Below, in pieces: positions 1 through 19,557 of a DNA stretch of 47,685 nucleotides. Source of the stretch: a virus (lineage: Duplodnaviria; Heunggongvirae; Uroviricota; Caudoviricetes). The stretch's first letter is position 1. Each line of letters starts with the position of its first letter. The stretch lies in IMG/VR virus record IMGVR_UViG_2513237200_000007; one strand, given 5' to 3'. A model generated the notes under the pieces. It ran no database searches. It worked only from the letters and a program-made list of their open reading frames with translations, and was not told the DNA's origin. Position numbers and translations under genes: made by a program.

Positions 1-107
1 CTTGTTGTCTGATTATTGATTTTTCGCGAAACCATTTGATCATATGACAAGATGTGTATCCACCTTAACTTAATGATTTTTACCAAAATCATTAGGGGAT
101 TCATCAG
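1..107 (-). mobile_element. IS10 outside-end fragment; element continues beyond window start
   Basis: Positions 1-107 are identical to 19451-19557, the outside end and transposase 5' leader of the complete IS10 copy in the same orientation; the transposase ATG would lie just outside the window. Confidence 0.9.
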
Positions 108-169
108 CACTGCGCTTGAATTTATGGATTTCAAGAGTCATGCGTGTTAACTATTTGATAAATATTAAA

Positions 170-1465
170 TTAATTTTTCATTGCTTCGTTATGGGGCATG
201 GTTGGGGCAAACTCGCTTAACTGTGTATTTAACAAAGCTACCTGTGCATTATTGTTTTCAGACATCCATTTTCCGTATACCTGAAATACCATTTGCGCAT
301 CTGCATGGCCCATCTGGTTTGCTATAAATGCCGGGTTAGCACCAGCTGTCAGCGACCAGCAGGCATAAGTATGTCTCGACTGATATGATTTTCGATGGCG
401 GAGTCCGGCACGTTTTATCGCTGCGTCCCACATCTGCCTTATTGAGTCAACGGTAAAATGGTCACCATAATTTTTTACTCTCGCTGACACTTCAGGTTGA
501 AAAACAAAGGTGCATTTTTGTTTTTCTGTTCTGCCATACTCTCTGAGGTGAACATCAATGATATGCTCTTTGCTCAGTCTCGTTAATGTCATCTGACTCC
601 GGAGAGCGTCGATTGCTGGCTTAATAAGATGAATGACCCGATTGGTTCCCGCCTGTGTTTTTGGTACCGTGAAACGGTCTTTTGCTAAATTTCTCCTGAT
701 CATCATTGTTCCATTTTTCAGATCTATGTCCTCCCATCCAAGTGCACACAGCTCACCAGGGCGAACTCCAGTATAAACAGAAACACACCATAAATTTTTT
801 GCTTGCTGATTTCTGCACGCATCGATAAGACGGATAAATTCTTCCCGCGAAAGAGGATCCGGAATGGTTCTTGATTCCTTTAATGGCGAGATCCCCTTAA
901 ACGGATTATCTGCCAGGTAACCGTTATCAACACCAAACTGGAACACGGCGTTAAGATTTGTCATGTAATTATTTACAGTTACAGCCGATCTCCCTAGTTG
1001 TGTAACAATATAGTTACTTTTGGGGATCTGGTATCCAGTCAGTAACTCTTTACGAACCTCCAGTAATTTTTCTTTATTAATCGATGAGGCAAGATTTTTT
1101 TCACCGATTATGCTCAGGATATTTTTGATGACGGCACGGTATGTGTTGAGTGATGTTTTGGCGACTTCAGTTTCTTTCAGTGCCAGAAATTTTTCAGCCA
1201 GTTCTTTTATGGTTAAATCTTGTCGGGCCTCACCAAATTTTTCCAGATTGCGTGAGGAGGGAAACTGTTTTGCATAGTCGAAAACACCAGTTTTTATTGC
1301 GTAACAAACAGAGGAGCGTAGTTCACCTGCAACGCGCCTGTTTTTTGCTGTGTCAGGAACCCCCAGATTTTCCCTGACTCTTACGTCTTTATAAACAAAC
1401 CAGATACGTAATTTCCCTCCATGGTTTTCCACGCCTGTCGGATATTTCATTTCAACTTCTCTCAT
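170..1465 (-). CDS. int: phage integrase (tyrosine recombinase family)
   Basis: 431-aa ORF; C-terminal region has integrase-type R...HxxR...Y catalytic context (HADAQMVFQVYGKW, RHTYACW); sits at prophage edge next to an excisionase-like gene. Alternative start at Met6 (MKYPTG) possible. Confidence 0.9.
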   Translation of the reverse strand: MREVEMKYPTGVENHGGKLRIWFVYKDVRVRENLGVPDTAKNRRVAGELRSSVCYAIKTGVFDYAKQFPSSRNLEKFGEARQDLTIKELAEKFLALKETEVAKTSLNTYRAVIKNILSIIGEKNLASSINKEKLLEVRKELLTGYQIPKSNYIVTQLGRSAVTVNNYMTNLNAVFQFGVDNGYLADNPFKGISPLKESRTIPDPLSREEFIRLIDACRNQQAKNLWCVSVYTGVRPGELCALGWEDIDLKNGTMMIRRNLAKDRFTVPKTQAGTNRVIHLIKPAIDALRSQMTLTRLSKEHIIDVHLREYGRTEKQKCTFVFQPEVSARVKNYGDHFTVDSIRQMWDAAIKRAGLRHRKSYQSRHTYACWSLTAGANPAFIANQMGHADAQMVFQVYGKWMSENNNAQVALLNTQLSEFAPTMPHNEAMKN

Positions 1466-1484
1466 TAGTTAGTGTGGCTTTTAG

Positions 1485-1736
1485 TCAAGTAAGATGACGT
1501 CTTGGTCTCGCTGATGCCTGGCGCTCAATCCAGCGATCAATTTCTTCCAGGTTGTAAAAGCATGGACTGTTATCCCATGGCATACCGTCATGAGCGACAT
1601 GCTTATATTCCCTTCCTTCCATAAACGATTTTTCCCGGGCCTTTTTTAACGTACCTTTTTTTATTCCTTTCAGCGCAATTAACTGCTCTTCGGATACCCA
1701 TTTGCCGGGAGAGACAATCATGATTACTTCGCTCAT
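1485..1736 (-). CDS. xis: excisionase-like small DNA-binding protein
   Basis: 83-aa ORF immediately upstream of int on the same strand, 19-nt spacing; size and position typical of Xis. Confidence 0.6.
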   Translation of the reverse strand: MSEVIMIVSPGKWVSEEQLIALKGIKKGTLKKAREKSFMEGREYKHVAHDGMPWDNSPCFYNLEEIDRWIERQASARPRRHLT

Positions 1737-1808
1737 CGATTTCTTTATCTCTTACATCAGACGAGCGCCGGTTGCAGAATACCAGTCACAACCGGCGACA
1801 GTTGAACA

Positions 1809-4286
1809 TTAAGAATCAGCCTGACTCGGGATCAGTTTTTGCCAGATAACTGAAACGTATTTTGCCTGGTAACGGGCGTCATCAAGTGCATTATGGCGCT
1901 CACCTTCGAATGGAATAGCCGTTCTGGCATCGAAGTCTATGGCTTTCCCCAGCTCAACGATTGTGCGTACATCGCGATCGTTGTAGTAACGCCACGGGCA
2001 GGGGATCCCCTGCCGTTCGTATGAACGGCGCAAAATCGTGTTGTCGAAGTTGGCTCCATTTCCCCAAACCTGAACAAAAAATTCACCGGAGTTTTCGTCG
2101 ATAAATTCTCGCAATTGTAACAGTGCATCATCTAACGGGATTTCATCGGTCATAATGGCAGATTGCGCTTCGCGTGATTGCTTAAGCCACCATTTAATGG
2201 TGTCCCGATCAATGACTCCGCCAGCAGTTTCCAGATCGATAGTCTTACTAAATTCCGGTCCCATATCTCCGGTTTGCGGATCGAAAAATATTGCACCTAT
2301 TGAGATGATCGGGGCATCAGGATTTTTTCCCATGGTTTCAAGGTCGATCATTAGATGGTCACACGTCCTGCTGGTGGATGTGATTTCGTGATGACCGTTC
2401 ACCTTAATTGGGTGATCTGCCGTCTCGCCAGTTTCATTATCGCTATTGTGATGCTGATTGCCGCCAGTGTTCTCCTTGTGTGGATGTTCAGCGCCTTCCA
2501 TTTCCTCCGGATCATCTTCCTGAACTTCAACCTGATACTCTTCATCGAATGTTTCTTGGTATGTTGCGTCGCCCATCACCGCGCCACAATCAGGGCAGTT
2601 GCCGCCGCCGGTCTGACCGCAGGCGGTGCAGACTTTTTCCACTTCCTGTTGCGCTACTGGTTCAGGCTGTTTCGTTTCTGGCTCGTTTTGTAACGCATTT
2701 GGACTGTTTTGTTCCGCTTTTTGGTAGTTCCGTTCCGATTCATGCTGGTTCTGGTTCACAGAATCGCGGGTCTGGAGCCCCTTAACCCATTTCGGATCAT
2801 TCGGGTCACTAATCCCTTCAACAAATTCACCACGTGATGCAGCAAGCAACTTATCGGCGTCAGGCTGGCTGATATTGGCTGCCTGCATAATTTTGTTTAC
2901 TTCGTCAGCGGTAACTTTTATCGGCTCTGGTTGTTCTGAATCTTCAGCGGTATCTACATTTTGCGGTAAGCCCGTGTATGTGCCATTTTTTCGGGCAAAA
3001 TATTCTTCTTTTGTGATTTCAGTGGCGCCAGCAGCCAGTGCCTTATCCAGACCAGAGAGTTTGTTTGCGCGACCGTATTTTTCTCCGTCCTTATCTGCGA
3101 AGAGGAAATAGAACGGCCCCTCACGCTCTACAGATGGTTCAGCTTCCGGCGCGGTTTCATTTTTTGGGATATCAGATACCTCAGTTTCCACTGCATCAGT
3201 TTGTGTTTCTGATGACTGGAGAACATCAACAGTGCCCAGGTCTGTTTCTTCATTCTCAAACACGCCCTTTGTCGTCAGGTATTCGCAGATATATTTGTTC
3301 AGTGCTACGGGATCTTTGTGAATGTCGATCGGACGCTCACGGACAAGGCCAAAAATAGTTTGGCGGTCGTAGCGAAGGGCATCAGGCTGTTTGCGCATTG
3401 ATGCCGAGATACGCTTCCAGTCTTCGCGGTCGTTGTCGATAACTTCTTTTTTTGCCCAGCGATGGATGCTGCCGTCAATGTTTCCGGCATCCACATCACT
3501 AGGCCAGAGAGCGTAGGCCAGTTCGTCATCCAGTGTTTTCCATGTCTGCTTGTATTCGCGATGAATGGCAGCAATGACCGGGCTGATTTTTCCTGTTGAA
3601 TTTTCAGTGTACTGTTGATTGGCTCTGGCTCTGGCGCGGGCGAGATCAACAACAGACGTGTATTTTCCGGTTTCCTTGCGTTCACCTTCGCGACGTTTTT
3701 TCCAGATGCGCATCTCTGCCTGAATTTCGGGCCATTTAGCACCAGGAATACATTTATGCTTAACCCACCCAATGGCGTGCAACTTAAGCTCCGGATACAT
3801 GGCGTTAACTTCTGGCATTTTCATCAACGCTTCAACGATATGTCCGTCGAATGTTGCCATGTCTTCCTGCAACAATTCCTGTGCGCTAATAACCATATCA
3901 ACGGTGATGTTTTCACATGTGTCGAACTTAACCATGACAGCGTTCTGTACTTCAGGGGCCAGCTTGTCAAAAGTGACGTTCATCGGATCGGATTCAGTCT
4001 CAACCGGGACAAAAGAAGCAGACTCCTCATCCCAGCGGTTTTCCTGCATATATTCAGCATCCCATGAATCGAGGGCAGGGCGGGGTATGCCAGGTTTATC
4101 CTCGCAGACAATAAATTTATAAGCGCAGTCCTGAGCAGCCGGATAATGTTCCAGGAATTGCCAGTGAAATTTTGCTCGAGCACGGCGTTCGTCGCCAGCT
4201 TCAATGGCTGTGGCTACAGCCACAGCGCCTTCTTCCCTTGTTGCCAGTTCGTCAGGAATAGCGGCGCAAATAAAGACTTTACTCAT
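1809..4286 (-). CDS. RecE-like exonuclease (exodeoxyribonuclease VIII-like) with C-terminal DEDDh 3'-5' exonuclease domain
   Basis: Start taken at MSKVF (ATG 4284-4286) rather than track start 4322. C-terminus has DnaQ-like motifs (MIDLETMG ... WGNGANFD ... HNALDDA); central CxxC...CxxC zinc finger (CTACGQTGGGNCPDCG); acidic linker. Appears to be the intact form of the gene that is fragmentary (ydfE) in K-12 Qin. Confidence 0.8.
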   Translation of the reverse strand: MSKVFICAAIPDELATREEGAVAVATAIEAGDERRARAKFHWQFLEHYPAAQDCAYKFIVCEDKPGIPRPALDSWDAEYMQENRWDEESASFVPVETESDPMNVTFDKLAPEVQNAVMVKFDTCENITVDMVISAQELLQEDMATFDGHIVEALMKMPEVNAMYPELKLHAIGWVKHKCIPGAKWPEIQAEMRIWKKRREGERKETGKYTSVVDLARARARANQQYTENSTGKISPVIAAIHREYKQTWKTLDDELAYALWPSDVDAGNIDGSIHRWAKKEVIDNDREDWKRISASMRKQPDALRYDRQTIFGLVRERPIDIHKDPVALNKYICEYLTTKGVFENEETDLGTVDVLQSSETQTDAVETEVSDIPKNETAPEAEPSVEREGPFYFLFADKDGEKYGRANKLSGLDKALAAGATEITKEEYFARKNGTYTGLPQNVDTAEDSEQPEPIKVTADEVNKIMQAANISQPDADKLLAASRGEFVEGISDPNDPKWVKGLQTRDSVNQNQHESERNYQKAEQNSPNALQNEPETKQPEPVAQQEVEKVCTACGQTGGGNCPDCGAVMGDATYQETFDEEYQVEVQEDDPEEMEGAEHPHKENTGGNQHHNSDNETGETADHPIKVNGHHEITSTSRTCDHLMIDLETMGKNPDAPIISIGAIFFDPQTGDMGPEFSKTIDLETAGGVIDRDTIKWWLKQSREAQSAIMTDEIPLDDALLQLREFIDENSGEFFVQVWGNGANFDNTILRRSYERQGIPCPWRYYNDRDVRTIVELGKAIDFDARTAIPFEGERHNALDDARYQAKYVSVIWQKLIPSQADS

Positions 4287-4378
4287 TTGTTTTAACCTCA
4301 TGACAGATTTAAGGATGAACAAATCCCTGCCATTGCTGGCATATAAGAATGAAACCGGATATTTATTACGGAACTGTT

Positions 4379-4570
4379 TTAAAGACCTGCCGGGATTTCG
4401 ATATTATCCTGGTGAATAACTTTATCGACCGGGTAACAGTTACCGGGAATTTTCTGTTCGGTTGCTGCAGTCATACACTCCTGCATTGTCCTGTGAACAC
4501 TGACTGCAATATCAACTGGCTCTCCGGAAACAAGAAAAACTGTCAGAACAAGCACAAATGCTGAATTCAT
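4379..4570 (-). CDS. ydfD: YdfD-like small protein with N-terminal hydrophobic segment (lysis-associated in Qin)
   Basis: 63 aa from MNSAFVLVLTVFLVSG; its ATG (4568-4570) overlaps the dicB stop (4567-4569), the ATGA coupling seen in the Qin dicB operon. Confidence 0.75.
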   Translation of the reverse strand: MNSAFVLVLTVFLVSGEPVDIAVSVHRTMQECMTAATEQKIPGNCYPVDKVIHQDNIEIPAGL

Positions 4571-4755
4571 TGTGCACATCCTTTTGGCATCAGACGTAAA
4601 CGAGCCAGCATTGAAACAATGCATATTTTATTTAATAGCTCCCGTTCTTGTTTTCTCTTGTTAATGGCATCTTCAGTAAATACTGGGTTACTGATAGTGA
4701 CACCAATTTCAAAACAACCTTCAGACGTATTAACGTTTGGTAATAACGTTTTCAT
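4567..4755 (-). CDS. dicB: cell division inhibitor DicB
   Basis: 62 aa, MKTLLPNVNTSEGCFEIGVTISNPVFTEDAINKRKQERELL..., recognised as DicB from memory; SD GAGGA upstream; located immediately 3' of DicF on same strand. Confidence 0.8.
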   Translation of the reverse strand: MKTLLPNVNTSEGCFEIGVTISNPVFTEDAINKRKQERELLNKICIVSMLARLRLMPKGCAQ

Positions 4756-4924
4756 TATCGCGTCCTCAACAATGAATTTTGTGATGCAGTGCCTGGTGCC
4801 TCCAGGTGACGTTAACCAGTTAACAATTAACGCCGGATACAGAGAATCCACCCATAACACTGTTTTTGGTTTTAACTGTTCCGCGTGCGCTCAGCCGCAT
4901 TCACCACATCACAAAATTCACTTT

Positions 4925-4982
4925 AAAAAGGGCGGCAGAGCAGTCACGGAGTAAAACTGATACCGCCAAACGTCACCAGAAA
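4925..4982 (-). ncRNA. dicF: DicF small regulatory RNA (ftsZ-targeting sRNA) with intrinsic terminator hairpin
   Basis: Reverse complement of 4930-4982 reads TTTCTGGTGACGTTTGGCGGTATCAGTTTTACTCCGTGACTGCTCTGCCGCCC, matching DicF as I recall it; followed by a T-run; sits between ydfC and dicB as in Qin. Confidence 0.85.
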
Positions 4983-5322
4983 ATTGATAACAGAGGGCGT
5001 TGCAGCGGGGTTGTCACTTAAGCGTATGATCAACCTGACAACCCGGTGTCCTCAACGGGGAAGGAATAACCCCGCCATACTTACCGCCGCGCCATTTCGC
5101 GGGTTGCCACAACCGGAAGCGCACGGTCGACGAAAATTTAACGACAGGCTATCTATGAACCAGCTACCTCGCCGTGCGCTTTCGCGTTATGGTCTGACTT
5201 TTCAGGGAAATATCCTTTCAGTAAACTGTCAGTTCCGGATGCGCACCCGTGTCCGGCGCACGCACTCCACCTCACCCGTGGAGAACTCCTTAATTACTAA
5301 CCTTAGCTTTGTTGATTAGCTA

Positions 5323-5541
5323 CTAACGCGGGTATGTAATCATTCTGGCAATGCTTAATGCCGCTGCTTTTTCCAGATTGGTGATATCCTGCTCCAGAGC
5401 GGACAGATTTTCAGCCTGCTTAGCCCTGGCTTCATTAGCCCATTTCAGATCCTGCGCTGCATTAATTTTCTGGCGCATCCACTCATAAAGTTCATCATCG
5501 GTATAGTCTGGCGCGATGATGACGGGTTCTCGTTTCTGCAT
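5323..5541 (-). CDS. ydfC: YdfC-like protein
   Basis: 72-aa ORF in the dicA-distal operon, order and size matching ydfC of Qin. Confidence 0.7.
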   Translation of the reverse strand: MQKREPVIIAPDYTDDELYEWMRQKINAAQDLKWANEARAKQAENLSALEQDITNLEKAAALSIARMITYPR

Positions 5542-5570
5542 ACTGATTCCTCGCGGTGCTGTTTCGCTTA

Positions 5571-5699
5571 TCAGCCGTTAGATTTTGCCGAACTGGAAAG
5601 CGCCTGTTTAAACTCACTGAAGCTGAGAGCTTCTTCGCCTTCGGCAAGGCCTTCGAAGTATTCTTCGTAAGCCTTTTCCATGATTGTGTCGAAATCCAT
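5571..5699 (-). CDS. ydfB: YdfB-like small protein (42 aa; below ORF-track size cutoff)
   Basis: Hand translation of minus strand from ATG 5697-5699: MDFDTIMEKAYEEYFEGLAEGEEALSFSEFKQALSSSAKSNG, stop at 5571-5573; start is 2 nt after the ydfA stop, implying translational coupling. Confidence 0.6.
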   Translation of the reverse strand: MDFDTIMEKAYEEYFEGLAEGEEALSFSEFKQALSSSAKSNG

Positions 5700-5700
5700 A

Positions 5701-5856
5701 TCACTCACCTGAGTTTCTTTCCAGCCAGCGACGGGCACCATTTTCGGTTTTAAACGTTTTGCTTTTGGTATACGTCATTGCGGTGAACGTGCCGTCCTGG
5801 TTTGGAAACACGCCGTACACCAGAGATTCGTTGTTGCCAAGATCGATAGTATCCAT
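5701..5856 (-). CDS. ydfA: YdfA-like small protein
   Basis: 51 aa from MDTIDLGNNESLVYGVFPNQDGTF... (ATG 5854-5856); first gene downstream of dicA on the same strand. Confidence 0.7.
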   Translation of the reverse strand: MDTIDLGNNESLVYGVFPNQDGTFTAMTYTKSKTFKTENGARRWLERNSGE

Positions 5857-6022
5857 GCTGACCTCATTTCCCCTTAACGCTGGGGTAGCGGAACTGTTTG
5901 CTGAGAACACCGTGCGGTGTGTTGATGCAAACAAGATTAGCCATGACTAACATATCGGTCAAGTGATTTTGTATGCTATAGCTAACATAATTGATGTGGT
6001 AAAAGATAACTCATTGATGATG

Positions 6023-6430
6023 TTATCTTTTATTTGTCCGCTGACGGGCTTTTAGTAATTCTTCAAAGAGTTTATTGAAGTTTTTTACTCGAGCTCGCAT
6101 TTCGGCGAGCTGGGTATCCTGTTCTGATTCTGGCAGTGCATTAAACAGCTCAAGGAGCTCTAGTTCTTTGGGGGATAAGGCAACTGGCTTCTCAACAGGT
6201 GGTGTTGGTTGCTTGTCTTCATCGCCAAATAGAATCCATGTTGGTGAGCATTGCAATACTTTGCTGAGGGCAAAAAGGTTCTTCCCTGTAGGTTCACTAT
6301 CACCCCGTTCCCATTGTGATACAGACACATGGGAGATTTTCAGGGCTTTAGCAAGAGACCTTTGGGTGTGTTTGAGGTTTTTCCGACGATACCTGATGCG
6401 TTCGCCGATAGTTAAATTTTTTGTTTCCAT
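6023..6430 (-). CDS. dicA: HTH (XRE/cI-like) repressor DicA
   Basis: 135 aa, METKNLTIGERIRYRRKNLKHTQRSLAKALKISHVSVSQWERGDSEPTGKNLFALSKVL... with clear HTH_XRE motif; divergent from dicC. Confidence 0.85.
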   Translation of the reverse strand: METKNLTIGERIRYRRKNLKHTQRSLAKALKISHVSVSQWERGDSEPTGKNLFALSKVLQCSPTWILFGDEDKQPTPPVEKPVALSPKELELLELFNALPESEQDTQLAEMRARVKNFNKLFEELLKARQRTNKR

Positions 6431-6513
6431 AGTTAGCTAATGCTAAATCGTATTGACTATGTTTTTGTTAACATCTATCTTGTTAGTTATGACTAACAAT
6501 AAAGGTGTTTTAA
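6431..6513. promoter_or_regulatory. divergent dicA/dicC promoter-operator region
   Basis: 83-bp intergenic between divergently transcribed repressor genes; contains palindromes TTAGCTAA, GTTAAC and GTTAGTTATGACTAAC typical of repressor operators. Confidence 0.5.
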
Positions 6514-6744
6514 ATGCTTAAAACTGACGCTCTTTTGTATTTCGGTTCAAAAACAAAACTTGCACAAGCAGCAGGTATTCGTTTGGCTTCGCTTTATAGC
6601 TGGAAAGGGGATTTAGTTCCCGAAGGTCGCGCGATGCGTCTACAGGAGGCATCTGGCGGGGAGCTTCAGTATGATCCCAAAGTTTATGATGAATATCGTA
6701 AGACGAAGCGGGCGGGGCGGTTGAACAATGAAAATCACTCCTGA
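6514..6744 (+). CDS. dicC: Cro-like regulator DicC
   Basis: 76 aa, MLKTDALLYFGSKTKLAQAAGIRLASLYSWKGDLVPEGRAMRLQEASGG...; divergent partner of dicA. Confidence 0.8.
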   Translation: MLKTDALLYFGSKTKLAQAAGIRLASLYSWKGDLVPEGRAMRLQEASGGELQYDPKVYDEYRKTKRAGRLNNENHS

Positions 6745-7249
6745 ACAGGCTCGTGAGGCTCTGGATGCCTGGATATGTCGACCAGGAATGACACAGGAGC
6801 AGGCGACGATATTAATCACTGAAGCATTCTGGGCTTTGAAAGAGCGCCCGAACATCGATGTTCAGCGTGTCACATATGAAGGTGGCGCGATTGATCAGCG
6901 AGCGCTTGGCGTTAATCGAGTGAAGATATTTGAACGCTGGAAGGCTATCGACACCAGGGATAAGCGTGAAAAGTTCACGGCGCTAGTGCCTGCAATTATG
7001 GAGGCTATCCGGATTAATGATTTCAGGTTGTATCGTGAAATTACTGACGGAAAAAGCATCACGTGCATGATCGCCGGGTTAAACAAAGAATATGGCGATG
7101 TGGTGGAGTCCGGACTGCTTTTTGCTGATCCTGCCGTAGTGGATCGTGAAACTGACGAACTTATAGAAAAAGCAATTGCTTTCAAACTTGCGTATCGACA
7201 GCAATACCAACAAAAAGCTGGATGGAATTATGAGCCTTCTTTTTGCTGA
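6728..7249 (+). CDS. YdfX-like protein (intact form; CII-position regulatory or YdaT-like protein)
   Basis: 173-aa ORF overlapping dicC end by 17 nt; N-terminus MKITPEQAREALDAWICRPGMTQEQ... resembles the ydfX fragment of K-12 Qin as I recall it; function not established. Confidence 0.55.
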   Translation: MKITPEQAREALDAWICRPGMTQEQATILITEAFWALKERPNIDVQRVTYEGGAIDQRALGVNRVKIFERWKAIDTRDKREKFTALVPAIMEAIRINDFRLYREITDGKSITCMIAGLNKEYGDVVESGLLFADPAVVDRETDELIEKAIAFKLAYRQQYQQKAGWNYEPSFC

Positions 7250-8195: not shown

Positions 8196-8235
8196 GTGTT
8201 GATTTCAGGTCATGAGGTAATTTTAAGGGGGACTT

Positions 8236-8658
8236 GTGGCAAAAGTTTTTACACAAGAAGAGCGGGAAAAAATTAAATGGCAGGTGGTGGAACTCGTGCG
8301 CCAGAGCGGCCGTGAGACGTTACGGCAACTGGAAGCTAAAACAGGTGCGACTAGATATCTGATGAGCGTTCTTGCCAGAGAGCTGGTAGCCAGTGGCGAT
8401 GTATACAACTCCGGCTACGGGTTATTCCCCTCTGAACAGGCGCGTAAGGACTGGCAAAACGCCCGCAAAAAACTCTCGAGGGCAAAGGTGAAGAAACCTG
8501 CTGTGGTTGATCCGGACCTTATCTGGTCATCACCTGACGGAGAAATACGTCGCTACGACAGTCGCCTAAACATAATCTGTCGCGAGTGCCGGAAGAGCGA
8601 AGTTATGCAGCGCATACTGGCTTTCTATCAGGGTAATTTTCAGGACGTGGCGCAGTGA
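8236..8658 (+). CDS. hypothetical protein (GTG start), translationally coupled to the downstream methyltransferase remnant
   Basis: 140-aa ORF with strong SD AAGGGGG 4-5 nt upstream of GTG 8236; stop overlaps the GTG of the next ORF (GTGA). No recognisable motif beyond a C-terminal CxxC. Confidence 0.5.
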   Translation: MAKVFTQEEREKIKWQVVELVRQSGRETLRQLEAKTGATRYLMSVLARELVASGDVYNSGYGLFPSEQARKDWQNARKKLSRAKVKKPAVVDPDLIWSSPDGEIRRYDSRLNIICRECRKSEVMQRILAFYQGNFQDVAQ

Positions 8659-9101
8659 GTGCACCGGCAACCATTCTTGATATGTGCTGTGGCAGCCGCA
8701 TGTTCTGGTTCGATAAGTCTGACGAACGGGCGATATTCAGCGATATCAGAAAAGAAGGATACACATTACGCAATGGGAGACGCTTGATTATCAGCCCTGA
8801 CATTATCGCAGATTTTCGTGCATTATCATTTGCAGACGCATCTTTTTCGATGGTTGTATTAGACCCTCCGCATCTTGAGAGTGTTGGTGATAACGCCTGG
8901 ATGGGAAAGAAATATGGACGGCTGAATAAAGATGCCTGGCGTGATGATTCGCGACAGAGATTTAAAGAAGCCTTTCGGGTGTTGAGGCCGCACGGCGTTC
9001 TGATTTTTTAATGGAATGAAACGCAAATACCGGTAAGCCAGATTCTGGCACTGACAGACAGAAAACCTGTTATCTGTCAACGAACAGGGAAAAAACGATA
9101 A
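8655..9101 (+). pseudogene. DNA methyltransferase remnant, truncated by in-frame TAA at 9009-9011
   Basis: N-terminal SAM-binding-like LDMCCGSR and catalytic-like VLDPPH motifs within 118 aa, then TAA; frame stays open a further 29 codons to the stop at 9099-9101; too short for a functional MTase. Confidence 0.45.
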
Positions 9102-12050: not shown

Positions 12051-12427
12051 TTCTGGTGTTCATTTTCGGGTGGTTTGTTACTTGTTTTACCGGGGATATG
12101 CCAGAAACGCGCTGAGTCAGTCTGGGCGGTGCGCGTAATGAGGCGTTATGGTAAATAGCCTATGCTAATGTCCGCTAAGAGCAAGAAGCGGAAGTTGGCA
12201 GTTTTGTGGACTGTCCCCACAAAAGTGACTACAGAAATAGTTGCAATTCATAATTGATCATGGGTTGTCAGTTAAACTCGTGGCGATTTAAATAGACTAA
12301 TTGGGAGTGCGTCCATTACTTATATCTTGTAATGTTAACTATCAGAAATGATACAAAGATAATATGTCTTTAAAGAAAAGGCTGATGGCGAAAAGTGGCC
12401 CGATGAGGGCCACAATACGGCTGTCAC

Positions 12428-12760
12428 TTAGACGTAAATATCAATGGTGCCAGCGGTATTTGTATCGTCTTTTTTCTCTTCTTTTTTATCAGGCTGAACT
12501 GTCGCGTCTTCATTCTTTTTCTCTGCCTGCTGCCTTAACAACTGCTCCAGTTGAGCCCAGAGGCTTTCAATTTGCTTCTGTACCAATGCAGCCATTTCTT
12601 TTTTCTGCTGTGTCGTCATCCCCTCTTCCGATGAGATTTTCCCAAGCTTTTCAGTCAGCACCTGAATTTGTCTTGTGATTTTGGCTATTTCTGATGTTCC
12701 TTCCGGGGCGGAGTTGTTTGAAATAACGGTTGAGGTATTTCCCTGAATTGTGACAGACAT
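12428..12760 (-). CDS. flxA: FlxA-like protein (FliA-regulated)
   Basis: 110 aa, MSVTIQGNTSTVISNNSAPEGTSEIAKITRQIQVLTEKLGK..., recognised as FlxA; preceded by a sigma-28 consensus promoter. Confidence 0.85.
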   Translation of the reverse strand: MSVTIQGNTSTVISNNSAPEGTSEIAKITRQIQVLTEKLGKISSEEGMTTQQKKEMAALVQKQIESLWAQLEQLLRQQAEKKNEDATVQPDKKEEKKDDTNTAGTIDIYV

Positions 12761-12783
12761 AGATTTCTCCTTTTAAAAAAGCA

Positions 12784-12810
12784 CTATCGGCATGCACAAA
12801 AAAATCTTTA
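12784..12810 (-). promoter_or_regulatory. sigma-28 (FliA) promoter upstream of flxA
   Basis: Minus strand reads TAAAGATT-N11-GCCGATAG, against consensus TAAAGTTT-N11-GCCGATAA, about 25 nt upstream of the flxA ATG. Confidence 0.7.
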
Positions 12811-12962
12811 ATCGTATTTCTTGTGTCATTAATTGTTTGATGTTCAGATTGTTTTCCTCGCGGGCTGGCGCGCCTCAGAAAGTAAAGCTTGTTGACAGGG
12901 GTAAACGTTCGGCAATAATTTTCTGCCGCATGCGGGTGTTGCATAAAACGTGTTACGTTCCT

Positions 12963-13268
12963 TTATCGACAGGTCAGGTCACCGCTCACCCGCCGACGAG
13001 AAAGCAACACTGACATGCTAAAGCAAAAAATAGATGAATAAGTTGAGTTGTGCATATGTAGCCTGACCGTCACAAAGTATATGGTGTCTGTACCAGTAAG
13101 ATGATGGCCGGACTCTTTAAAAACGAGCTGACCTGCACAATACAGGATGGACTTAGCAATGGCTGCTCCTGGCACAAAGCGGACAGTGATCACCGTTCTT
13201 ACGACTACTTTCTGACTTCCTTCGTGACTTGCCCTAAGCATGTTGTAGTGCGATACTTGTAATGACAT
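12963..13268 (-). CDS. hypothetical ORF (YdfV-like by position and length)
   Basis: 101-aa ORF between relB promoter and flxA; composition is not convincingly protein-like; kept only because position and length match a gene annotated in Qin. Confidence 0.3.
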   Translation of the reverse strand: MSLQVSHYNMLRASHEGSQKVVVRTVITVRFVPGAAIAKSILYCAGQLVFKESGHHLTGTDTIYFVTVRLHMHNSTYSSIFCFSMSVLLSRRRVSGDLTCR

Positions 13269-13283
13269 TTGTAATTACAAGAG
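13229..13283 (+). promoter_or_regulatory. relB promoter with relO-like operator
   Basis: -35 TTGCCC (13229-13234), 17-nt spacer, -10 GATACT (13252-13257); operator-like inverted repeats CTTGTAATGACATTTGTAATTACAAG overlapping -10 and start site. Confidence 0.6.
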
Positions 13284-13292
13284 GTGTAAGAC

Positions 13293-13532
13293 ATGGGTAG
13301 CATTAACCTGCGTATTGACGATGAACTTAAAGCGCGTTCTTACGCCGCGCTTGAAAAAATGGGTGTAACTCCTTCTGAAGCGCTTCGTCTCATGCTCGAG
13401 TATATCGCTGACAATGAACGCTTGCCGTTCAAACAGACACTCCTGAGTGATGAAGATGCTGAACTTGTGGAGATAGTGAAAGAACGGCTTCGTAATCCTA
13501 AGCCAGTACGTGTGACGCTGGATGAACTCTGA
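13293..13532 (+). CDS. relB: RelB antitoxin
   Basis: 79 aa, MGSINLRIDDELKARSYAALEKMGVTPSEALRLMLEYIADNERLPF...; stop overlaps relE start. Confidence 0.9.
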   Translation: MGSINLRIDDELKARSYAALEKMGVTPSEALRLMLEYIADNERLPFKQTLLSDEDAELVEIVKERLRNPKPVRVTLDEL

Positions 13533-13819
13533 TGGCGTATTTTCTGGATTTTGACGAGCGGGCACTAAAGGAATGGCGAAAGCTGGGCTCGACGGTACGT
13601 GAACAGTTGAAAAAGAAGCTGGTTGAAGTACTTGAGTCACCCCGGATTGAAGCAAACAAGCTCCGTGGTATGCCTGATTGTTACAAGATTAAGCTCCGGT
13701 CTTCAGGCTATCGCCTTGTATACCAGGTTATAGACGAGAAAGTTGTCGTTTTCGTGATTTCTGTTGGGAAAAGAGAACGCTCGGAAGTATATAGCGAGGC
13801 GGTCAAACGCATTCTCTGA
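13532..13819 (+). CDS. relE: RelE mRNA interferase toxin
   Basis: 95 aa, MAYFLDFDERALKEWRKLGSTVREQLKKKLVEVLESPRIE...; ATGA overlap with relB. Confidence 0.9.
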   Translation: MAYFLDFDERALKEWRKLGSTVREQLKKKLVEVLESPRIEANKLRGMPDCYKIKLRSSGYRLVYQVIDEKVVVFVISVGKRERSEVYSEAVKRIL

Positions 13820-13890
13820 ACCAAAGCATGACATCTCTGTTTCGCACCGAAGGTGACACTTCTGCTTTGCGTTGACAGGAGAAGCAGGCT

Positions 13891-14046
13891 ATGAAGCAGC
13901 AAAAGGCGATGTTAATCGCCCTGATCGTCATCTGTTTAACCGTCATAGTGACGGCACTGGTAACGAGGAAAGACCTCTGCGAGGTACGAATCCGAACCGG
14001 CCAGACGGAGGTCGCTGTCTTCACAGCTTACGAACCTGAGGAGTAA
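13891..14046 (+). CDS. hokD: HokD (RelF) small membrane toxin, 51 aa (below ORF-track cutoff)
   Basis: Hand translation from ATG 13891: MKQQKAMLIALIVICLTVIVTALVTRKDLCEVRIRTGQTEVAVFTAYEPEE, stop TAA 14044-14046; Hok family features. Confidence 0.8.
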   Translation: MKQQKAMLIALIVICLTVIVTALVTRKDLCEVRIRTGQTEVAVFTAYEPEE

Positions 14047-14114
14047 GAGACCCGGCGGGGGAGAAATCCCTCGCCACCTCTGATGTGGCAGGCATCCTCA
14101 ACGCACCCGCACTT

Positions 14115-14140
14115 AACCCGCTTCGGCGGGTTTTTGTTTT
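14115..14140 (+). terminator. rho-independent terminator after relBE-hokD
   Basis: Hairpin CCCGC-TTCG-GCGGG followed by TTTTTGTTTTT. Confidence 0.6.
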
Positions 14141-14262
14141 TATTTTCAACGCGTTTGAAGTTCTGGACGGTGCCGGAATAGAATCAAAAATACTTAAGTA
14201 GCGCGCAGGGATAAGAGGGATGGTCCCTTAAAGGGGAGAGCTAATTATCCGGAAGGATTCTG

Positions 14263-14514
14263 ATGATGAACATCGAAGAACTGCGTAAAATTTTTTGTGA
14301 AGATGGCCTCTATGCTGTGTGCGTTGAAAATGGAAATCTTGTTAGTCATTACCGCATTATGTGTTTGCGAAAGAATGGGGCTGCGTTAATTAATTTTGTG
14401 GATGCTCGGGTCACGGACGGATTTATCTTGCGCGAAGGTGAGTTTGTCACTTCATTACAGGCATTGAAAGAGATCGGAATAAAAGCTGGCTTTTCTGCTT
14501 TTTCAGGAGAATAA
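14263..14514 (+). CDS. rem: Rem-like protein
   Basis: 83 aa, MMNIEELRKIFCEDGLYAVCVENGNLVSHYRIMCL...; position between hokD and ydfU as in Qin. Confidence 0.7.
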   Translation: MMNIEELRKIFCEDGLYAVCVENGNLVSHYRIMCLRKNGAALINFVDARVTDGFILREGEFVTSLQALKEIGIKAGFSAFSGE

Positions 14515-14580
14515 ACTCATCTACAATCTTGCGCGGGGCTGAACTCCCGCTGAGTAACACCGTGCCACCGGAGAAAACCG

Positions 14581-14859
14581 ATGGCACGCAACGCAAAATA
14601 TTACAATTCTGATAATTCGCCCGTTCTTGCCTGCACGCACGGGCGGTATTCTCACGCATTCAAGTCTGAATGGTTCCAGCACCCTCCATGCACTGCAGAA
14701 CAGGCCGAATGGCTGATTCATTCTTACCGCAGGCGCGGGTTCGAGGTTAAGAAAGCTCTCAGTCTCGACTATCGGCACTGGATAATCTCTGTCAGGCTGC
14801 CTTATTCCGAACGCCCACCACGTGCGTCCCGCACTTTCCAGCAACGGATCTGGAGGTAA
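14581..14859 (+). CDS. hypothetical protein (nin-region-like)
   Basis: 92-aa ORF with SD GGAG; its stop at 14857-14859 immediately precedes the ydfU GTG (14861). Confidence 0.4.
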   Translation: MARNAKYYNSDNSPVLACTHGRYSHAFKSEWFQHPPCTAEQAEWLIHSYRRRGFEVKKALSLDYRHWIISVRLPYSERPPRASRTFQQRIWR

Positions 14860-14860
14860 C

Positions 14861-15910
14861 GTGCGGGTATTACTTAGACCTGTTCTGGTGCCTGAGCTTG
14901 GGCTGGTGGTCCTTAAGCCGGGCCGTGAATCCATACAGATATTTCATAATCCTCGAGTGCTGGTGGAACCGGAACCAAAAAGCATGCGTAATCTGCCATC
15001 CGGAGTCGTTCCTGCCGTTCGCCAGCCGCTGGCGGAAGACAAAACATTGCTGCCGTTTTTTAGTAACGAACGGGTGATTCGTGCTGCTGGCGGCGTTGGC
15101 GCATTGTCCGACTGGCTATTACGTCATGTTACATCCTGCCAGTGGCCTAATGGCGATTACCATCACACTGAAACAGTCATTCACCGTTATGGTACCGGCG
15201 CAATGGTGTTGTGCTGGCACTGCGACAACCAACTGCGTGACCAGACATCGGAATCACTGGAGCTGCTTGCTCAACAAAATCTGACAGCATGGGTGATTGA
15301 CGTCATCCGTCACGCAATAAGCGGTACGCAGGAGCGGGAATTATCTTTGGCTGAATTATCCTGGTGGGCGGTCTGCAATCAGGTGGTGGATGCACTACCT
15401 GAGGCTGTATCGCGTCGTTCGCTGGGATTACCAGCGGAAAAAATCTGCTCGGTGTACCGCGAAAGCGACATCGTACCGGGAGAGCAGACCGCCACCAGCA
15501 TATTGAAACAACGCACAAAAAATCTTGCACCGTTGCCTTACGCCCACCAGCAACAAAAATCACCACAGGAAAAGACGGTGGTAAGCATCACCGTTGATCC
15601 AGAGTCTCCGGAATCTTTCATGAAGCTGCCTAAACGTCGCCGCTGGGTTAAGGAGAAATACACACGTTGGGTTAAGACACAGCCGTGTGCTTGCTGCGGT
15701 ATGCCAGCCGACGATCCGCATCATCTGATTGGTCACGGGCAGGGCGGAATGGGAACAAAAGCACATGATCTCTTTGTGTTGCCTTTGTGCAGAAAGCATC
15801 ACAACGAGCTGCATACGGATACAGTGGCATTTGAAGATAAGTATGGCTCCCAACTGGAGCTGATATTTCGTTTTATCGATCGCGCGCTGACAATTGGCGT
15901 ACTGGCGTAA
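14861..15910 (+). CDS. ydfU: YdfU-like protein (DUF968; HNH-like Cys/His motif)
   Basis: 349 aa from GTG 14861 with SD GGAGG 4 nt upstream; C-terminal CACCGMPADDPHHLIGHG...CRKHHNELH motif. Confidence 0.75.
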   Translation: MRVLLRPVLVPELGLVVLKPGRESIQIFHNPRVLVEPEPKSMRNLPSGVVPAVRQPLAEDKTLLPFFSNERVIRAAGGVGALSDWLLRHVTSCQWPNGDYHHTETVIHRYGTGAMVLCWHCDNQLRDQTSESLELLAQQNLTAWVIDVIRHAISGTQERELSLAELSWWAVCNQVVDALPEAVSRRSLGLPAEKICSVYRESDIVPGEQTATSILKQRTKNLAPLPYAHQQQKSPQEKTVVSITVDPESPESFMKLPKRRRWVKEKYTRWVKTQPCACCGMPADDPHHLIGHGQGGMGTKAHDLFVLPLCRKHHNELHTDTVAFEDKYGSQLELIFRFIDRALTIGVLA

Positions 15911-15923
15911 GTGGAGAACGAGC

Positions 15924-16676
15924 ATGAACCTTGAAGCCTTACCAAAATATTACTCCCCAAAATCTCCAAAATTGAGCGATGACGCTCCAGCGACAGGCAC
16001 CGGTTGTTTAACAATTACGGATGTAATGGCAGCGCAGGGGATGGTGCAGTCGAAAGCACCACTTGGGTTGGCCTTATTTCTGGCAAAAGTTGGTGTTCAG
16101 GACCCTCAGTTTGCGATTGAAGGCCTGCTAAATTACGCGATGGCACTGGATAACCCGACATTGAACAAATTGAGTGAAGAAATCCGGTTACAGATTATTC
16201 CTTACCTCGTGAGTTTTGCCTTTGCTGATTACTCCAGGTCTGCGGCAAGTAAGGCTCGCTGTGAGCATTGTTCAGGTACGGGATTTTATAATGTATTGCG
16301 CGAAGTGGTGAAACACTACAGACGCGGGGAATCTGTAATCAAGGAAGAATGGGTGAAGGAACTATGTCAGCATTGCCATGGTAAGGGCGAAGCCAGCACA
16401 GCGTGCAGAGGGTGTAAGGGTAAAGGGATTGTTCTGGATGAAAAAAGAACCCGGTTTCATGGCGTACCGGTATATAAGATTTGTGGGCGTTGTAATGGAA
16501 ACCGGTTTAGTCGTTTACCGACCACGCTGGCACGACGTCATGTCCAGAAGCTGGTACCAGACCTGACCGATTATCAGTGGTATAAGGGGTATGCGGACGT
16601 CATTGGTAAACTGGTAACAAAGTGCTGGCAGGAAGAAGCATACGCGGAAGCGCAATTGAGGAAGGTGACGAGATAA
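15924..16676 (+). CDS. quuQ: late-gene antiterminator Q-like protein
   Basis: 250 aa from MNLEALPKYYSPKSPK; CxxC...CxxC zinc-binding region (CEHCSGTGFY...CQHCHGKGE...CRGCKGKG); immediately followed by a late-promoter-like element and terminator. Confidence 0.8.
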   Translation: MNLEALPKYYSPKSPKLSDDAPATGTGCLTITDVMAAQGMVQSKAPLGLALFLAKVGVQDPQFAIEGLLNYAMALDNPTLNKLSEEIRLQIIPYLVSFAFADYSRSAASKARCEHCSGTGFYNVLREVVKHYRRGESVIKEEWVKELCQHCHGKGEASTACRGCKGKGIVLDEKRTRFHGVPVYKICGRCNGNRFSRLPTTLARRHVQKLVPDLTDYQWYKGYADVIGKLVTKCWQEEAYAEAQLRKVTR

Positions 16677-16707
16677 ATGATTTTTGCTGAAGATGGCGAC
16701 ATGATGT

Positions 16708-16736
16708 TTGCATTTTTCAAAAAATATGGATAAAAT
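16708..16736 (+). promoter_or_regulatory. pR'-like late promoter downstream of Q
   Basis: -35 TTGCAT (16708-16713), 17-nt spacer, -10 TAAAAT (16731-16736). Confidence 0.5.
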
Positions 16737-16782
16737 TTTTTCAACGATGGGCTTTGTATACCCGACGTTAAGAAAAAGTAGA

Positions 16783-16812
16783 AAACCCGCTGATGAGCGG
16801 GTTTTGTGCTTT
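16783..16812 (+). terminator. tR'-like intrinsic terminator of a short late leader transcript
   Basis: Hairpin AACCCGCT-GATG-AGCGGGTT followed by TTGTGCTTT, about 50 nt downstream of the predicted late-promoter start site. Confidence 0.5.
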
Positions 16813-17097
16813 AAATGGGGCAATGGTAATGTTGAATCTCATCCCGGGACTCATGTCTGTTAACTTATTATTTAGCTGGTGACTTGGTTATTTGCCTGAT
16901 GTTTAAAATGTTTTCTTCCAGTACAATGTCCCTAAACACAATGAGTCTGCTTATTATATTATTAGCAGAGCTATTACGGCCAAAGTACAGCATAAGCTTT
17001 TAAAGCCAATCAACCAGTCATCAAGACAGACGGGGTTATTCATAAAAACTCTCCATGTGTGATCCGATGGGGCCTGAAATTAAAGCTTTAATATAGC

Positions 17098-17310
17098 TCA
17101 TGAAAGGTAAACATTGGCAGCTGAAGGGCCACGCAGACCATTTATCCGGCAAAATTCCACGCGTAATCCGGTGGTAATTTCTTCTGCATCGCGGAGATTG
17201 AGCGCTGAAACATGAAGCTGGACATCGATACGACCATCGGATGGGGTGATAAGACCCTTGCCGCTTTTGCCGTCAAAGGTTTTGACAATTCCTGTCATTT
17301 TACGGGACAA
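17098..17310 (-). CDS. cspF: cold-shock-domain protein CspF-like
   Basis: 70 aa, [38 protein letters not shown]...; CSD fold motifs. Confidence 0.85.
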
Positions 17311-17610
17311 AAAAATTCCTTAATACTGATAACTTGGCGCACTATACACACGTTCCTGAAGAAAGCTATAGTTTTTTGATGGGGTTGAAGATGGCTGGAT
17401 GTCTAAAATAAACATTGCTTCATATGTTCAACTATGCGTTAATGATTGCGTCGGTTTGAAGAACAGACGATATACGAAGTAGTTTACTAAAGCAGTTCTC
17501 ATTTCAGGTGTTATTCACTTATTCCTTCTTTGAGTCTCTCCAATTAAGTACGAAGTCGTTTCTGTTATGCAAACCATTTATGCCGAAAGGCTCAAGTTAA
17601 GGAATGTAGA

Positions 17611-17826
17611 ATGTCAAATAAAATGACTGGTTTAGTAAAATGGTTTAACGCTGATAAAGGTTTCGGCTTTATTTCTCCTGTTGATGGTAGTAAAGATGTG
17701 TTTGTGCATTTTTCTGCGATTCAGAATGATAATTATCGAACCTTATTTGAAGGTCAAAAGGTTACCTTCTCTATAGAGAGTGGTGCTAAAGGTCCTGCAG
17801 CAGCAAATGTCATCATTACTGATTAA
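17611..17826 (+). CDS. cspB: cold-shock protein CspB-like
   Basis: 71 aa, [38 protein letters not shown]...; RNP1/RNP2 motifs; long 5' leader typical of csp genes. Confidence 0.9.
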
Positions 17827-18107
17827 AATTCATCGCTCGTCTGTATACGATAACGAAGAAGGCTGATGCCTGAGTAGAGATACGGACAGAGTAGTGAATA
17901 TTGGATCTCTTTAATAAAAAGTAAGGAGGTCCAATACATGAAACAATGGCTAGCATATTTGGCAAAATCTTAATCAGGAAAAGTATGCTAACCATTGTGG
18001 TGAAGTGCAGGTTTGCTGCATGAATAGTTTTACAGCAGAAGCTAACTGCTGGCATGGCAAAACAAAGTGCGTAAGTGGATGACTCCCACAAAAAGCACCA
18101 CAATCTC

Positions 18108-18131
18108 AAACCCGCTCAGGCGGGTTTTTTA
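18108..18131 (+). terminator. rho-independent terminator after cspB
   Basis: Hairpin AAACCCGC-TCAG-GCGGGTTT followed by T-run. Confidence 0.6.
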
Positions 18132-18219
18132 TTATCTGCTTTAAATATATTATTAAAATATAAAAAATACTTGTTACTAATAAAATCAATCAGGCTACAG
18201 CTTTAAGATTTGTCTGGAA

Positions 18220-18228
18220 TACTTTGTT
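18220..18228. repeat. 9-bp target-site duplication (left copy) of IS10
   Basis: TACTTTGTT immediately flanks both IS10 ends (18220-18228 and 19558-19566). Confidence 0.8.
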
Positions 18229-19557
18229 CTGAGAGATCCCCTCATAATTTCCCCAAAGCGTAACCATGTGTGAATAAATTTTGAGCTAGTAGGGTTGCAG
18301 CCACGAGTAAGTCTTCCCTTGTTATTGTGTAGCCAGAATGCCGCAAAACTTCCATGCCTAAGCGAACTGTTGAGAGTACGTTTCGATTTCTGACTGTGTT
18401 AGCCTGGAAGTGCTTGTCCCAACCTTGTTTCTGAGCATGAACGCCCGCAAGCCAACATGTTAGTTGAAGCATCAGGGCGATTAGCAGCATGATATCAAAA
18501 CGCTCTGAGCTGCTCGTTCGGCTATGGCGTAGGCCTAGTCCGTAGGCAGGACTTTTCAAGTCTCGGAAGGTTTCTTCAATCTGCATTCGCTTCGAATAGA
18601 TATTAACAAGTTGTTTGGGTGTTCGAATTTCAACAGGTAAGTTAGTTGCTAGAACCCATGGCTCCTTTGCCGACGCTGAGTAGATTTTAGGTGACGGGTG
18701 GTGACAATGAGTCCGTGTCGAGCGCTGATTTTTTCGGCCTTTAGAGCGAGATTTATACAATAGAATTTGGCATGAGATTGGATTGCTTTTAGTCAGCCTC
18801 TTATAGCCTAAAGTCTTTGAGTGACTAGATGACATATCATGTAAGTTGCTGATAGGTTTCCAGTTTTCCGCTCCTAGGTCTGCATATTGTACTTTTCCTC
18901 TTACTCGACTTAACCAGTACCAACCCAGCTTCTCAACGGATTTATACCATGGCACTTTAAAGCCAGCATCACTGACAATGAGCGGTGTGGTGTTACTCGG
19001 TAGAATGCTCGCAAGGTCGGCTAGAAATTGGTCATGAGCTTTCTTTGAACATTGCTCTGAAAGCGGGAACGCTTTCTCATAAAGAGTAACAGAACGACCG
19101 TGTAGTGCGACTGAAGCTCGCAATACCATAAGTCGTTTTTGCTCACGAATATCAGACCAGTCAACAAGTACAATGGGCATCGTATTGCCCGAACAGATAA
19201 AGCTAGCATGCCAACGGTATACAGCGAGTCGCTCTTTGTGGAGGTGACGATTACCTAACAATCGGTCGATTCGTTTGATGTTATGTTTTGTTCTCGCTTT
19301 GGTTGGCAGGTTACGGCCAAGTTCGGTAAGAGTGAGAGTTTTACAGTCAAGTAATGCGTGGCAAGCCAACGTTAAGCTGTTGAGTCGTTTTAAGTGTAAT
19401 TCGGGGCAGAATTGGTAAAGAGAGTCGTGTAAAATATCGAGTTCGCACATCTTGTTGTCTGATTATTGATTTTTCGCGAAACCATTTGATCATATGACAA
19501 GATGTGTATCCACCTTAACTTAATGATTTTTACCAAAATCATTAGGGGATTCATCAG
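18229..19557 (-). mobile_element. complete IS10 (1329 bp)
   Basis: Inside end CTGAGAGATCCCCTCATAATTTCCCC at 18229; outside end ...GGGGATTCATCAG ending at 19557; single 402-aa transposase; flanked by 9-bp direct repeat. Confidence 0.95.
18242..19450 (-). CDS. IS10 transposase
   Basis: 402 aa, MCELDILHDSLYQFCPELHLKRLNSLTLACHALLDCKTLTLTELGRNL..., recognised as the IS10/Tn10 transposase. Confidence 0.95.
   Translation of the reverse strand: MCELDILHDSLYQFCPELHLKRLNSLTLACHALLDCKTLTLTELGRNLPTKARTKHNIKRIDRLLGNRHLHKERLAVYRWHASFICSGNTMPIVLVDWSDIREQKRLMVLRASVALHGRSVTLYEKAFPLSEQCSKKAHDQFLADLASILPSNTTPLIVSDAGFKVPWYKSVEKLGWYWLSRVRGKVQYADLGAENWKPISNLHDMSSSHSKTLGYKRLTKSNPISCQILLYKSRSKGRKNQRSTRTHCHHPSPKIYSASAKEPWVLATNLPVEIRTPKQLVNIYSKRMQIEETFRDLKSPAYGLGLRHSRTSSSERFDIMLLIALMLQLTCWLAGVHAQKQGWDKHFQANTVRNRNVLSTVRLGMEVLRHSGYTITREDLLVAATLLAQNLFTHGYALGKL

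Follow-up and report, generated by a model that had tools for sequence, protein, structure and literature searches.

Two directly repeated IS10 copies around the early region of a Qin-type prophage: probable separate insertions during an IS10 burst in the Escherichia coli LY180 lineage

Introduction

How did two copies of one insertion sequence (IS) come to stand in direct orientation around the early region of a prophage, and do they form a mobile unit of their own? We addressed this question for a stretch of 47,685 nucleotides of viral DNA (Caudoviricetes; IMG/VR record IMGVR_UViG_2513237200_000007), the whole of which is called the window here. An initial annotation, made from the sequence alone, had described window positions 1–107 as identical to the outside end of a complete IS10 further downstream (19451–19557) and in the same orientation, so that about 18 kb of int-to-cspB DNA would lie between directly repeated IS10 copies; it had proposed that homologous recombination could delete this DNA and that the pair could behave as a composite transposon-like unit. 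We refer to the left copy as A and to the right copy as B. We found that A and B are very probably two independent simple insertions of one active element, with no joint arrival, and that the arrangement is an ordinary by-product of an IS10 burst already documented in the host lineage. The phenomenon is already known, because the IS10 expansion has been published and copy A is present in the public genome of E. coli LY180.

Results and discussion

We aligned the window with the genome of LY180 (NC_022364.1) by blastn and obtained two blocks, of 18,228 and 28,128 bp, both with zero mismatches and zero gaps. They cover window positions 1–18228 and 19558–47685 and share exactly 9 bp in LY180. Identity extends to all 46,356 window positions outside copy B, so that the window equals the LY180 prophage plus one extra IS10. 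The separateness of the two copies follows from the fact that each has its own matched 9-bp target duplication (CACTGCGCT for A, TACTTTGTT for B), and from the existence of empty sites for both, in LY180 for B and in wild-type E. coli W for A. Copies A, B, and C show no sequence difference along their 1329 bp (A and C being read from LY180); copy C interrupts pin in LY180, 127 bp past the right end of the window (L004 949–2277), with the duplication GGCTCAGCA.

On sequence grounds, the host context is the Qin-type prophage of LY180, an engineered ethanol strain of the W to KO11 lineage. We searched 5,426 complete RefSeq E. coli genomes by megablast with window positions 1–3000, a query that includes 107 nt of IS10. 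Only LY180, AQ15, HBUT-L, and hubt-sl matched at full length and 100% identity, with SL112 at 99.2%, and W aligned only from position 107 on. The IS10 junctions of AQ15, SL112, HBUT-L, and hubt-sl are identical to those of LY180, and these strains are therefore taken as members of the LY180 lineage. The comparison of related genomes that the initial annotation had called for thus gives a consistent picture: copy A is present in all five strains and missing from W, whereas copy B is present in none of the five.

The prophage is lambdoid and integrated in ydfJ, between rspB and ydfI; “Qin” is the name given to it in the W genome paper (PMC3032704). It shares its integration site (ydfJ) with the defective Qin of K-12, together with dicB, DicF, relBE, hokD, cspB/F/I, and essQ/rrrQ, but differs in its completeness: the W/LY180 prophage has its full length, including int, xis, and the entire morphogenesis region for head and tail. 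Its size is ~47.8 kb in W. Here it would be ~50.5 kb if copy C (pin::IS10) is present as in LY180, which makes two internal IS10 copies, and ~49.1 kb with copy B alone. The left edge of the window lies exactly one base past the position of the transposase ATG of copy A, and the right edge is the reverse complement of a GTG within the pin gene; both edges look like gene-boundary cuts rather than biological ends.

Two genomes labelled DH5alpha (NZ_CP026085.1 and NZ_CM135829.1; 4.83 Mb) also contain the W-type full-length Qin region at 100% identity, without copy A, and show 18–19 matching places for the query including 107 nt of IS10. Judging from these matches, both seem to belong to the W/KO11 lineage rather than to K-12 DH5alpha.

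The downstream element, copy B, is a complete IS10, as the initial annotation had described it, and has an intact transposase gene (Table 1). It begins with CTGAGAGATCC and ends with GGGGATTCATCAG, and its terminal inverted repeats, CTGAGAGATCCCCTCATAATTTC and CTGATGAATCCCCTAATGATTTT, agree at 17 of 23 positions by visual count. GATC (Dam) sites lie at IS10 positions 7 and 1260, that is, at the inside end and near the transposase promoter. The transposase scored 404 bits against the IS4-family transposase model NF033591 (cut-off 152) and has an identical RefSeq protein, WP_001339197.1, annotated as “IS4-like element ISVsa5 family transposase”. All features tested agree with IS10 (IS10-Right of Tn10; ISVsa5 family in RefSeq; IS4 family), namely the 1329-bp length, the 402-aa DDE transposase, the 9-bp duplication, the imperfect repeats, RNA-OUT, and the GATC sites, and the element itself shows no difference.

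Copy B stands after codon 47 of the 56-codon gene ynfU, whose last nine residues are exchanged for an IS-encoded tail. To one side lie cspB and its terminator, and to the other the lysis cassette essD-ydfR-rrrQ-rzpQ, in which essD starts 360 bp downstream of the outward-facing end of the element. TACTTTGTT, the 9-bp overlap of the two blastn blocks, is single-copy in LY180. Copy B was found in none of the complete RefSeq E. coli genomes, where a 2-kb query spanning the insertion was never covered to at least 80%; it is absent from LY180 and its four sequenced relatives, the empty site having been read in LY180 only. Its left junction was not found in IMG/VR, and the ynfU'-IS10 fusion protein, in 102-aa and 119-aa versions, had no match in indexed assemblies. 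By these comparisons, copy B is evidently a recent insertion private to the strain of the window, a relative of LY180. The only novelty is the ynfU insertion site TACTTTGTT, which occurs with IS10 in no complete RefSeq E. coli genome.

An insertion seen in no other genome, in a lineage where ~30 identical IS10 copies complicate assembly, might also be a repeat misplaced by the assembler. We give this reading virtually no credence: an exact 1329-bp element whose 9-bp flanks perfectly duplicate a target present once in the parent is what real transposition leaves, not a mis-join. As a real insertion, ynfU::IS10 provides an added marker for lineage tracing.

Regarding copy A, both the repeat finder and blastn gave 100% identity between window positions 1–107 and the outside end of copy B in the same orientation, confirming the initial annotation; the value of 111 nt at 99% that the repeat finder also reported consists of the 107-nt repeat and four flank bases, one of them mismatched. 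An exact repeat of 107 nt cannot have arisen by chance. Reading leftwards in LY180, we found copy A to be complete (L001 18779–20107), identical to copy B at 1329 of 1329 bp, and in direct orientation, which contradicts both a short solo end fragment and an inverted copy, the two outcomes that would have spoken against direct copies around int to cspB. The unrelated flanks of the two copies that had been pointed out were quoted correctly and are in fact the 9-bp target duplications. CACTGCGCT stands on both sides of copy A in LY180 and is single-copy in W, which has no IS10 at the site; copy A is common to LY180, AQ15, SL112, HBUT-L, and hubt-sl.

The common core of the attachment site, TTGAATTTATGGATTTC, was located by comparing attL of the window, attR of LY180, and the prophage-free attB of isolate Br_112_kylling. 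Its position next to the right duplication places copy A 1–2 bp outside the prophage, within the 5' stub of the host gene ydfJ. We considered whether copy A could block excision; this is not indicated, as 9 native bp are kept beside the core and ~26 bp of the host side are native.

Together, these data fit the following sequence of events. IS10 has multiplied to roughly 27–40 copies in the laboratory lineage from W through KO11 to LY180 and its derivatives. By cut-and-paste, copy A would have entered the host ydfJ 5' fragment, 1–2 bp from the attL core of the resident prophage, earlier than the last ancestor that LY180, AQ15, SL112, HBUT-L, and hubt-sl share. Copy B would have followed in ynfU, a small prophage gene located between cspB and the lysis cassette, and hit its 3' end. 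The direct orientation of A and B and their spacing of 19,450 bp would then be accidental and define no mobile unit.

The expansion itself is visible in our searches, in which the 3-kb query with 107 nt of IS10 matched 29–38 places in LY180-lineage genomes versus 2 in W. Turner et al. (2012) reportedly found no IS10 in W, ~30 sites in KO11FL, and one in the early KO11 stock. Rearrangements promoted by IS10 in KO11 are mentioned in a passage of PMC4126452 that cites Turner 2012. In addition, yqhC::IS10 has been described in EMFR9 (PMC9118994), and focA::IS10 arose three times independently during the evolution of derivatives of XW043, for which LY180 is the nearest sequenced relative (bioRxiv 10.1101/100602). 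The presence of A, B, and C within 50 kb need not reflect non-random clustering: for ~28 copies on 4.8 Mb, a rough scan statistic predicts about one group of three this close by chance.

The pair could alternatively be regarded as a composite transposon, in which the inside end of copy A and the outside end of copy B would move a 20.8-kb unit consisting of A, the segment, and B. Structurally, two IS copies do flank a segment here; the transposase gene and the ends are intact in both, the combination of an inside with an outside end is also that of a single IS10, and composite transposons with direct IS copies exist (Tn9 with IS1). Nevertheless, the outer flanks differ, CACTGCGCT on the left of A and TACTTTGTT on the right of B, and no duplication is shared. 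What would be the cargo is the early region of the resident Qin prophage, in its native place in ydfJ, and LY180 carries the same DNA without B. Neither a genome with the unit nor a second location was found among the 5,426 genomes. Moreover, Tn10 transposition frequency reportedly drops steeply with length, by ~40% per kb; on this basis, the mobility of a 20.8-kb unit would lie several orders of magnitude below that of a lone IS10. A composite transposon is therefore extremely unlikely. Transposition of the 20.8-kb unit has left no sign of occurrence and would be negligible at this length dependence. The proposal of a composite transposon-like unit was thus not borne out, given the separate duplications, the differing outer flanks, the empty sites in LY180 (B) and W (A), and the absence of the unit from other genomes. 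The likeness to Tn10 and to Tn9, with its direct IS1 copies, ends with two copies of one IS around a segment. In Tn10 the IS10 copies are inverted, their outside ends form the outer boundaries, and a single duplication surrounds the entire transposon, whereas A and B are direct, have separate duplications, and enclose prophage DNA that was there first.

If A and B are separate insertions, their consequence for the prophage lies in recombination between them. The pair is identical at 1329 of 1329 bp, in the same orientation, and separated by 19,450 bp from start to start; perfect direct repeats of 1.3 kb are typical substrates of RecA-dependent deletion. Homologous recombination between A and B would delete 19,450 bp, one IS10 included, and with them attL, int, xis, exo, dicB/DicF, dicA/dicC, replication-region genes, relBE, hokD, Q, cspF, and cspB. 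The product would be one hybrid IS10 with CACTGCGCT on its left and TACTTTGTT on its right, in a late-gene remnant that could be neither excised nor induced. Such recombination is a prediction for this locus. The deletion foreseen in the initial annotation is thus reasonable as a prediction, in view of the identical direct repeats and of the precedent given below, whereas its product was seen in none of the 5,426 genomes.

The precedent comes from the other side of the prophage. LY180 has a fourth copy, D, 19,683 bp beyond copy C (start to start) and direct with it (L011 25266–26594). HBUT-L and hubt-sl instead contain a single hybrid IS10 (HBUT-L L010 7001–8329) with the left flank of copy D, TATTGAGTG, and the right flank of copy C, GGCTCAGCA. 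From these flanks, the hybrid is evidently the result of a 19.7-kb deletion between the direct copies D and C, which takes attR, the remainder of ydfJ, ydfI, ydfG, dcp, eamA, a phosphotransferase system/porin cluster, ydfK, and the 5' part of pin. This deletion fixes the prophage in place in HBUT-L and hubt-sl. Copy D of LY180 itself has unmatched flanks and stands in place of 23,966 bp retained in W (L012 6951–30916), a loss that runs from lsrK through marRAB to a 6-phospho-beta-glucosidase gene and includes the lsr autoinducer-2 operon, tam, uxaB, glsB, sad, ydeA, marC, and marRAB; LY180-lineage strains are consequently without marRAB and lsr. Because of the D/C collapse in HBUT-L and hubt-sl and the 23,966-bp loss at copy D, IS10-associated deletions of 20–24 kb are demonstrated, at the level of genome comparison, as a habit of this lineage around this locus. 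The IS10 deletions and inversions of KO11/LY180 (Turner et al. 2012) concern the same element, lineage, and type of substrate, although the A/B deletion itself has not been observed. IS10 rearrangements in K-12 laboratory strains (Raleigh and Kleckner 1984; the ER2796 and DH10B genomes) are described in PMC4444293.

Copy C is inverted relative to A and B. The outside ends face each other between B and C across the late region and between A and C across the whole prophage, and recombination of A with C or of B with C would invert the whole prophage or the late region, respectively. Elsewhere, a query spanning copy C was fully covered in K-12 ET12567 and in the human isolate NZ_OW849377.1, and the copy C IS10 with its prophage-side flank was covered in the poultry isolate MB50 (all three by coverage only).

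Some points weigh against this account of two separate insertions and a deletion to come. The body of copy A lies outside the window, and its completeness in the actual strain is read across from LY180; descent of that strain from LY180 is not distinguishable from descent from a sister strain; and further rearrangements may exist beyond the window. In addition, the A/B joint was not found: with a chimeric query that joined the sequence left of A, IS10, and the sequence right of B, coverage exceeded 85% in none of the 5,426 genomes.

With a loss between A and B, the prophage would be deprived of int/xis, immunity, relBE, hokD, and two cold-shock genes, its late genes would be locked in, and it would move toward a K-12-like Qin remnant. 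The main consequence of the arrangement is structural instability, and in LY180-derived production strains the region deserves to be flagged as genetically unstable. The locus offers a small example of how an IS burst can set up the stepwise decay of an intact prophage to a Qin-like remnant, a process already carried out in HBUT-L.

We also examined the insertion sites as targets. IS10 at CACTGCGCT, with the same duplication, occurs in at least four independent contexts and in both orientations. The LY180 lineage is one context; the bovine isolates TL-14 and 800 carry a divergent IS10 allele in the same orientation as LY180; the poultry isolate MB53 has IS10 in the opposite orientation; and the Brazilian isolate Br_112_kylling has it in the opposite orientation in an intact, prophage-free ydfJ. 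Halling and Kleckner are said to have reported in 1982 the IS10/Tn10 target consensus NGCTNAGCN, whose six specified positions are matched at 6/6 by copy C, 4/6 by copy A, and 3/6 by copy B. Weak target sites are used by IS10, at lower frequency. Judging from its recurrence, CACTGCGCT looks like an IS10 hotspot despite the 4/6 match. One could go further and regard it as an unrecognised strong hotspot at which IS10, with pOUT running antisense into int, acts as a recurrent natural switch on the mobility of Qin-type prophages; we think this improbable. If it were true, IS10 at CACTGCGCT might measurably alter excision or integration of Qin-type phages. As another independent insertion nearby, E. 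coli 55989 has an IS10 inside rspB (L007 1487–3844), ~1 kb from the ydfJ hotspot.

The orientation of RNA-OUT, which in copy A is transcribed toward the outside end and thus toward int, allows a prediction for outward transcription: transcripts from pOUT of copy A would enter int in antisense, and those from pOUT of copy B would run in the sense direction toward essD. Promoter and terminator scans around both copies gave counts at chance level, and the place of copy B relative to the late promoter is judged here from gene order. This geometry raises the question of whether copy B was selected, either through disruption of ynfU, through an added 1.3 kb that separates the lysis genes from the Q/late-promoter region, or through expression of essD-rrrQ from pOUT; the 1.3-kb spacer would, on this reading, cripple a prophage that is costly under industrial stress. 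Copy B does lie between ydfT (Q, ending at 16676) and essD (19918), its RNA-OUT/pOUT points at essD, and adaptive IS10 insertions are known in this lineage (focA, yqhC). On the other hand, the insertion is a single occurrence with no parallel at the ynfU site in any complete RefSeq E. coli genome, its target agrees poorly with the Tn10 consensus, the change in ynfU affects only the last 9 residues, and the promoter scan of the region stayed at chance level. Furthermore, polymerase modified by Q normally reads through terminators. Selection of copy B is thus very unlikely, and we retain an ordinary insertion during the IS10 burst as its origin.

Table 1. Features of the window that bear on the two IS10 copies
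Feature	Position	Strand	Basis or detail
Copy A, outside end, 107 bp; remainder left of window	1..107	-	100% identical to 19451–19557
RNA-OUT of copy A, 5' cut by window start	1..62	+	Rfam RF00240, 79.1 bits, model positions 9–70
Right 9-bp target duplication of copy A, CACTGCGCT, host ydfJ 5' sequence	108..116	.	Same 9 bp left of the LY180 element
attL common core of Qin-type prophage, TTGAATTTATGGATTTC	~117..133	.	attL / attR / attB comparison
Segment between the IS10 copies, 18,121 bp	108..18228	.	100% identical to LY180; RefSeq annotation
Prophage integrase, first bracketed gene	170..1450	-	RefSeq CDS WP_000876956.1 in LY180
Left 9-bp target duplication of copy B, TACTTTGTT	18220..18228	.	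Perfect match to the right one
Copy B, complete IS10	18229..19557	-	1329 bp; inside end 18229, outside end 19557
IS10 transposase gene of copy B, intact, 402 aa	18242..19450	-	Open reading frame and NF033591 match
RNA-OUT of copy B, outward toward essD	19443..19512	+	Rfam RF00240, 98.8 bits, full length
Right 9-bp target duplication of copy B, TACTTTGTT	19558..19566	.	Perfect match to the left one
ynfU 5' part, 47 codons, fused to frame entering IS10 outside end	19558..19698	-	ynfU translations; LY180 annotation
essD, holin gene, first gene of lysis cassette	19918..20133	+	LY180 annotation transferred by coordinates; open reading frame 19843–20133

Other features of the window and its surroundings

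The gene content of the segment between copies A and B is as the initial annotation had described it. It holds attL, int, xis, exo, ydfD, dicB, DicF, ydfABC, and dicA/dicC; ydaT-like and replication-region genes, an ISNCY remnant, flxA, relBE, hokD, and rem; and ydfU, ydfT (the Q antiterminator), cspF, cspB, and the 3' end of ynfU. The integrase gave weak tyrosine-recombinase matches, far under the NCBIfam cut-offs (best 82 bits versus 220). Rfam matches within the segment are DicF, sok, and the cspA thermoregulator.

The sok match (hok/sok 5' region) is full length at 10433–10604 (+). The annotated hokD is ~3.3 kb distant, whereas a truncated ISNCY-family transposase gene (10678–11991) follows directly downstream of the match. 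This suggests a putative second hok-type locus, disrupted by the ISNCY remnant. Thermoregulator leaders of the cspA type are located at 17450–17842 and 21690–22000, ahead of cspB and cspI, and these two genes are associated with a 200-nt direct repeat of 73% identity (17611–17810 and 21836–22035) that straddles copy B and the lysis cassette. An inverted repeat at 24056–24112, with 26-nt arms of 85% complementarity and a 5-nt loop, lies just upstream of nohA, the terminase small subunit gene, in a region where a cos site or a terminator is expected. Outside the window, mlc, the gene of a global sugar regulator, is split by IS1 in LY180 (L001 2199–4196) and intact in W (L002 4208–5428), which could bear on sugar uptake in the engineered strain.

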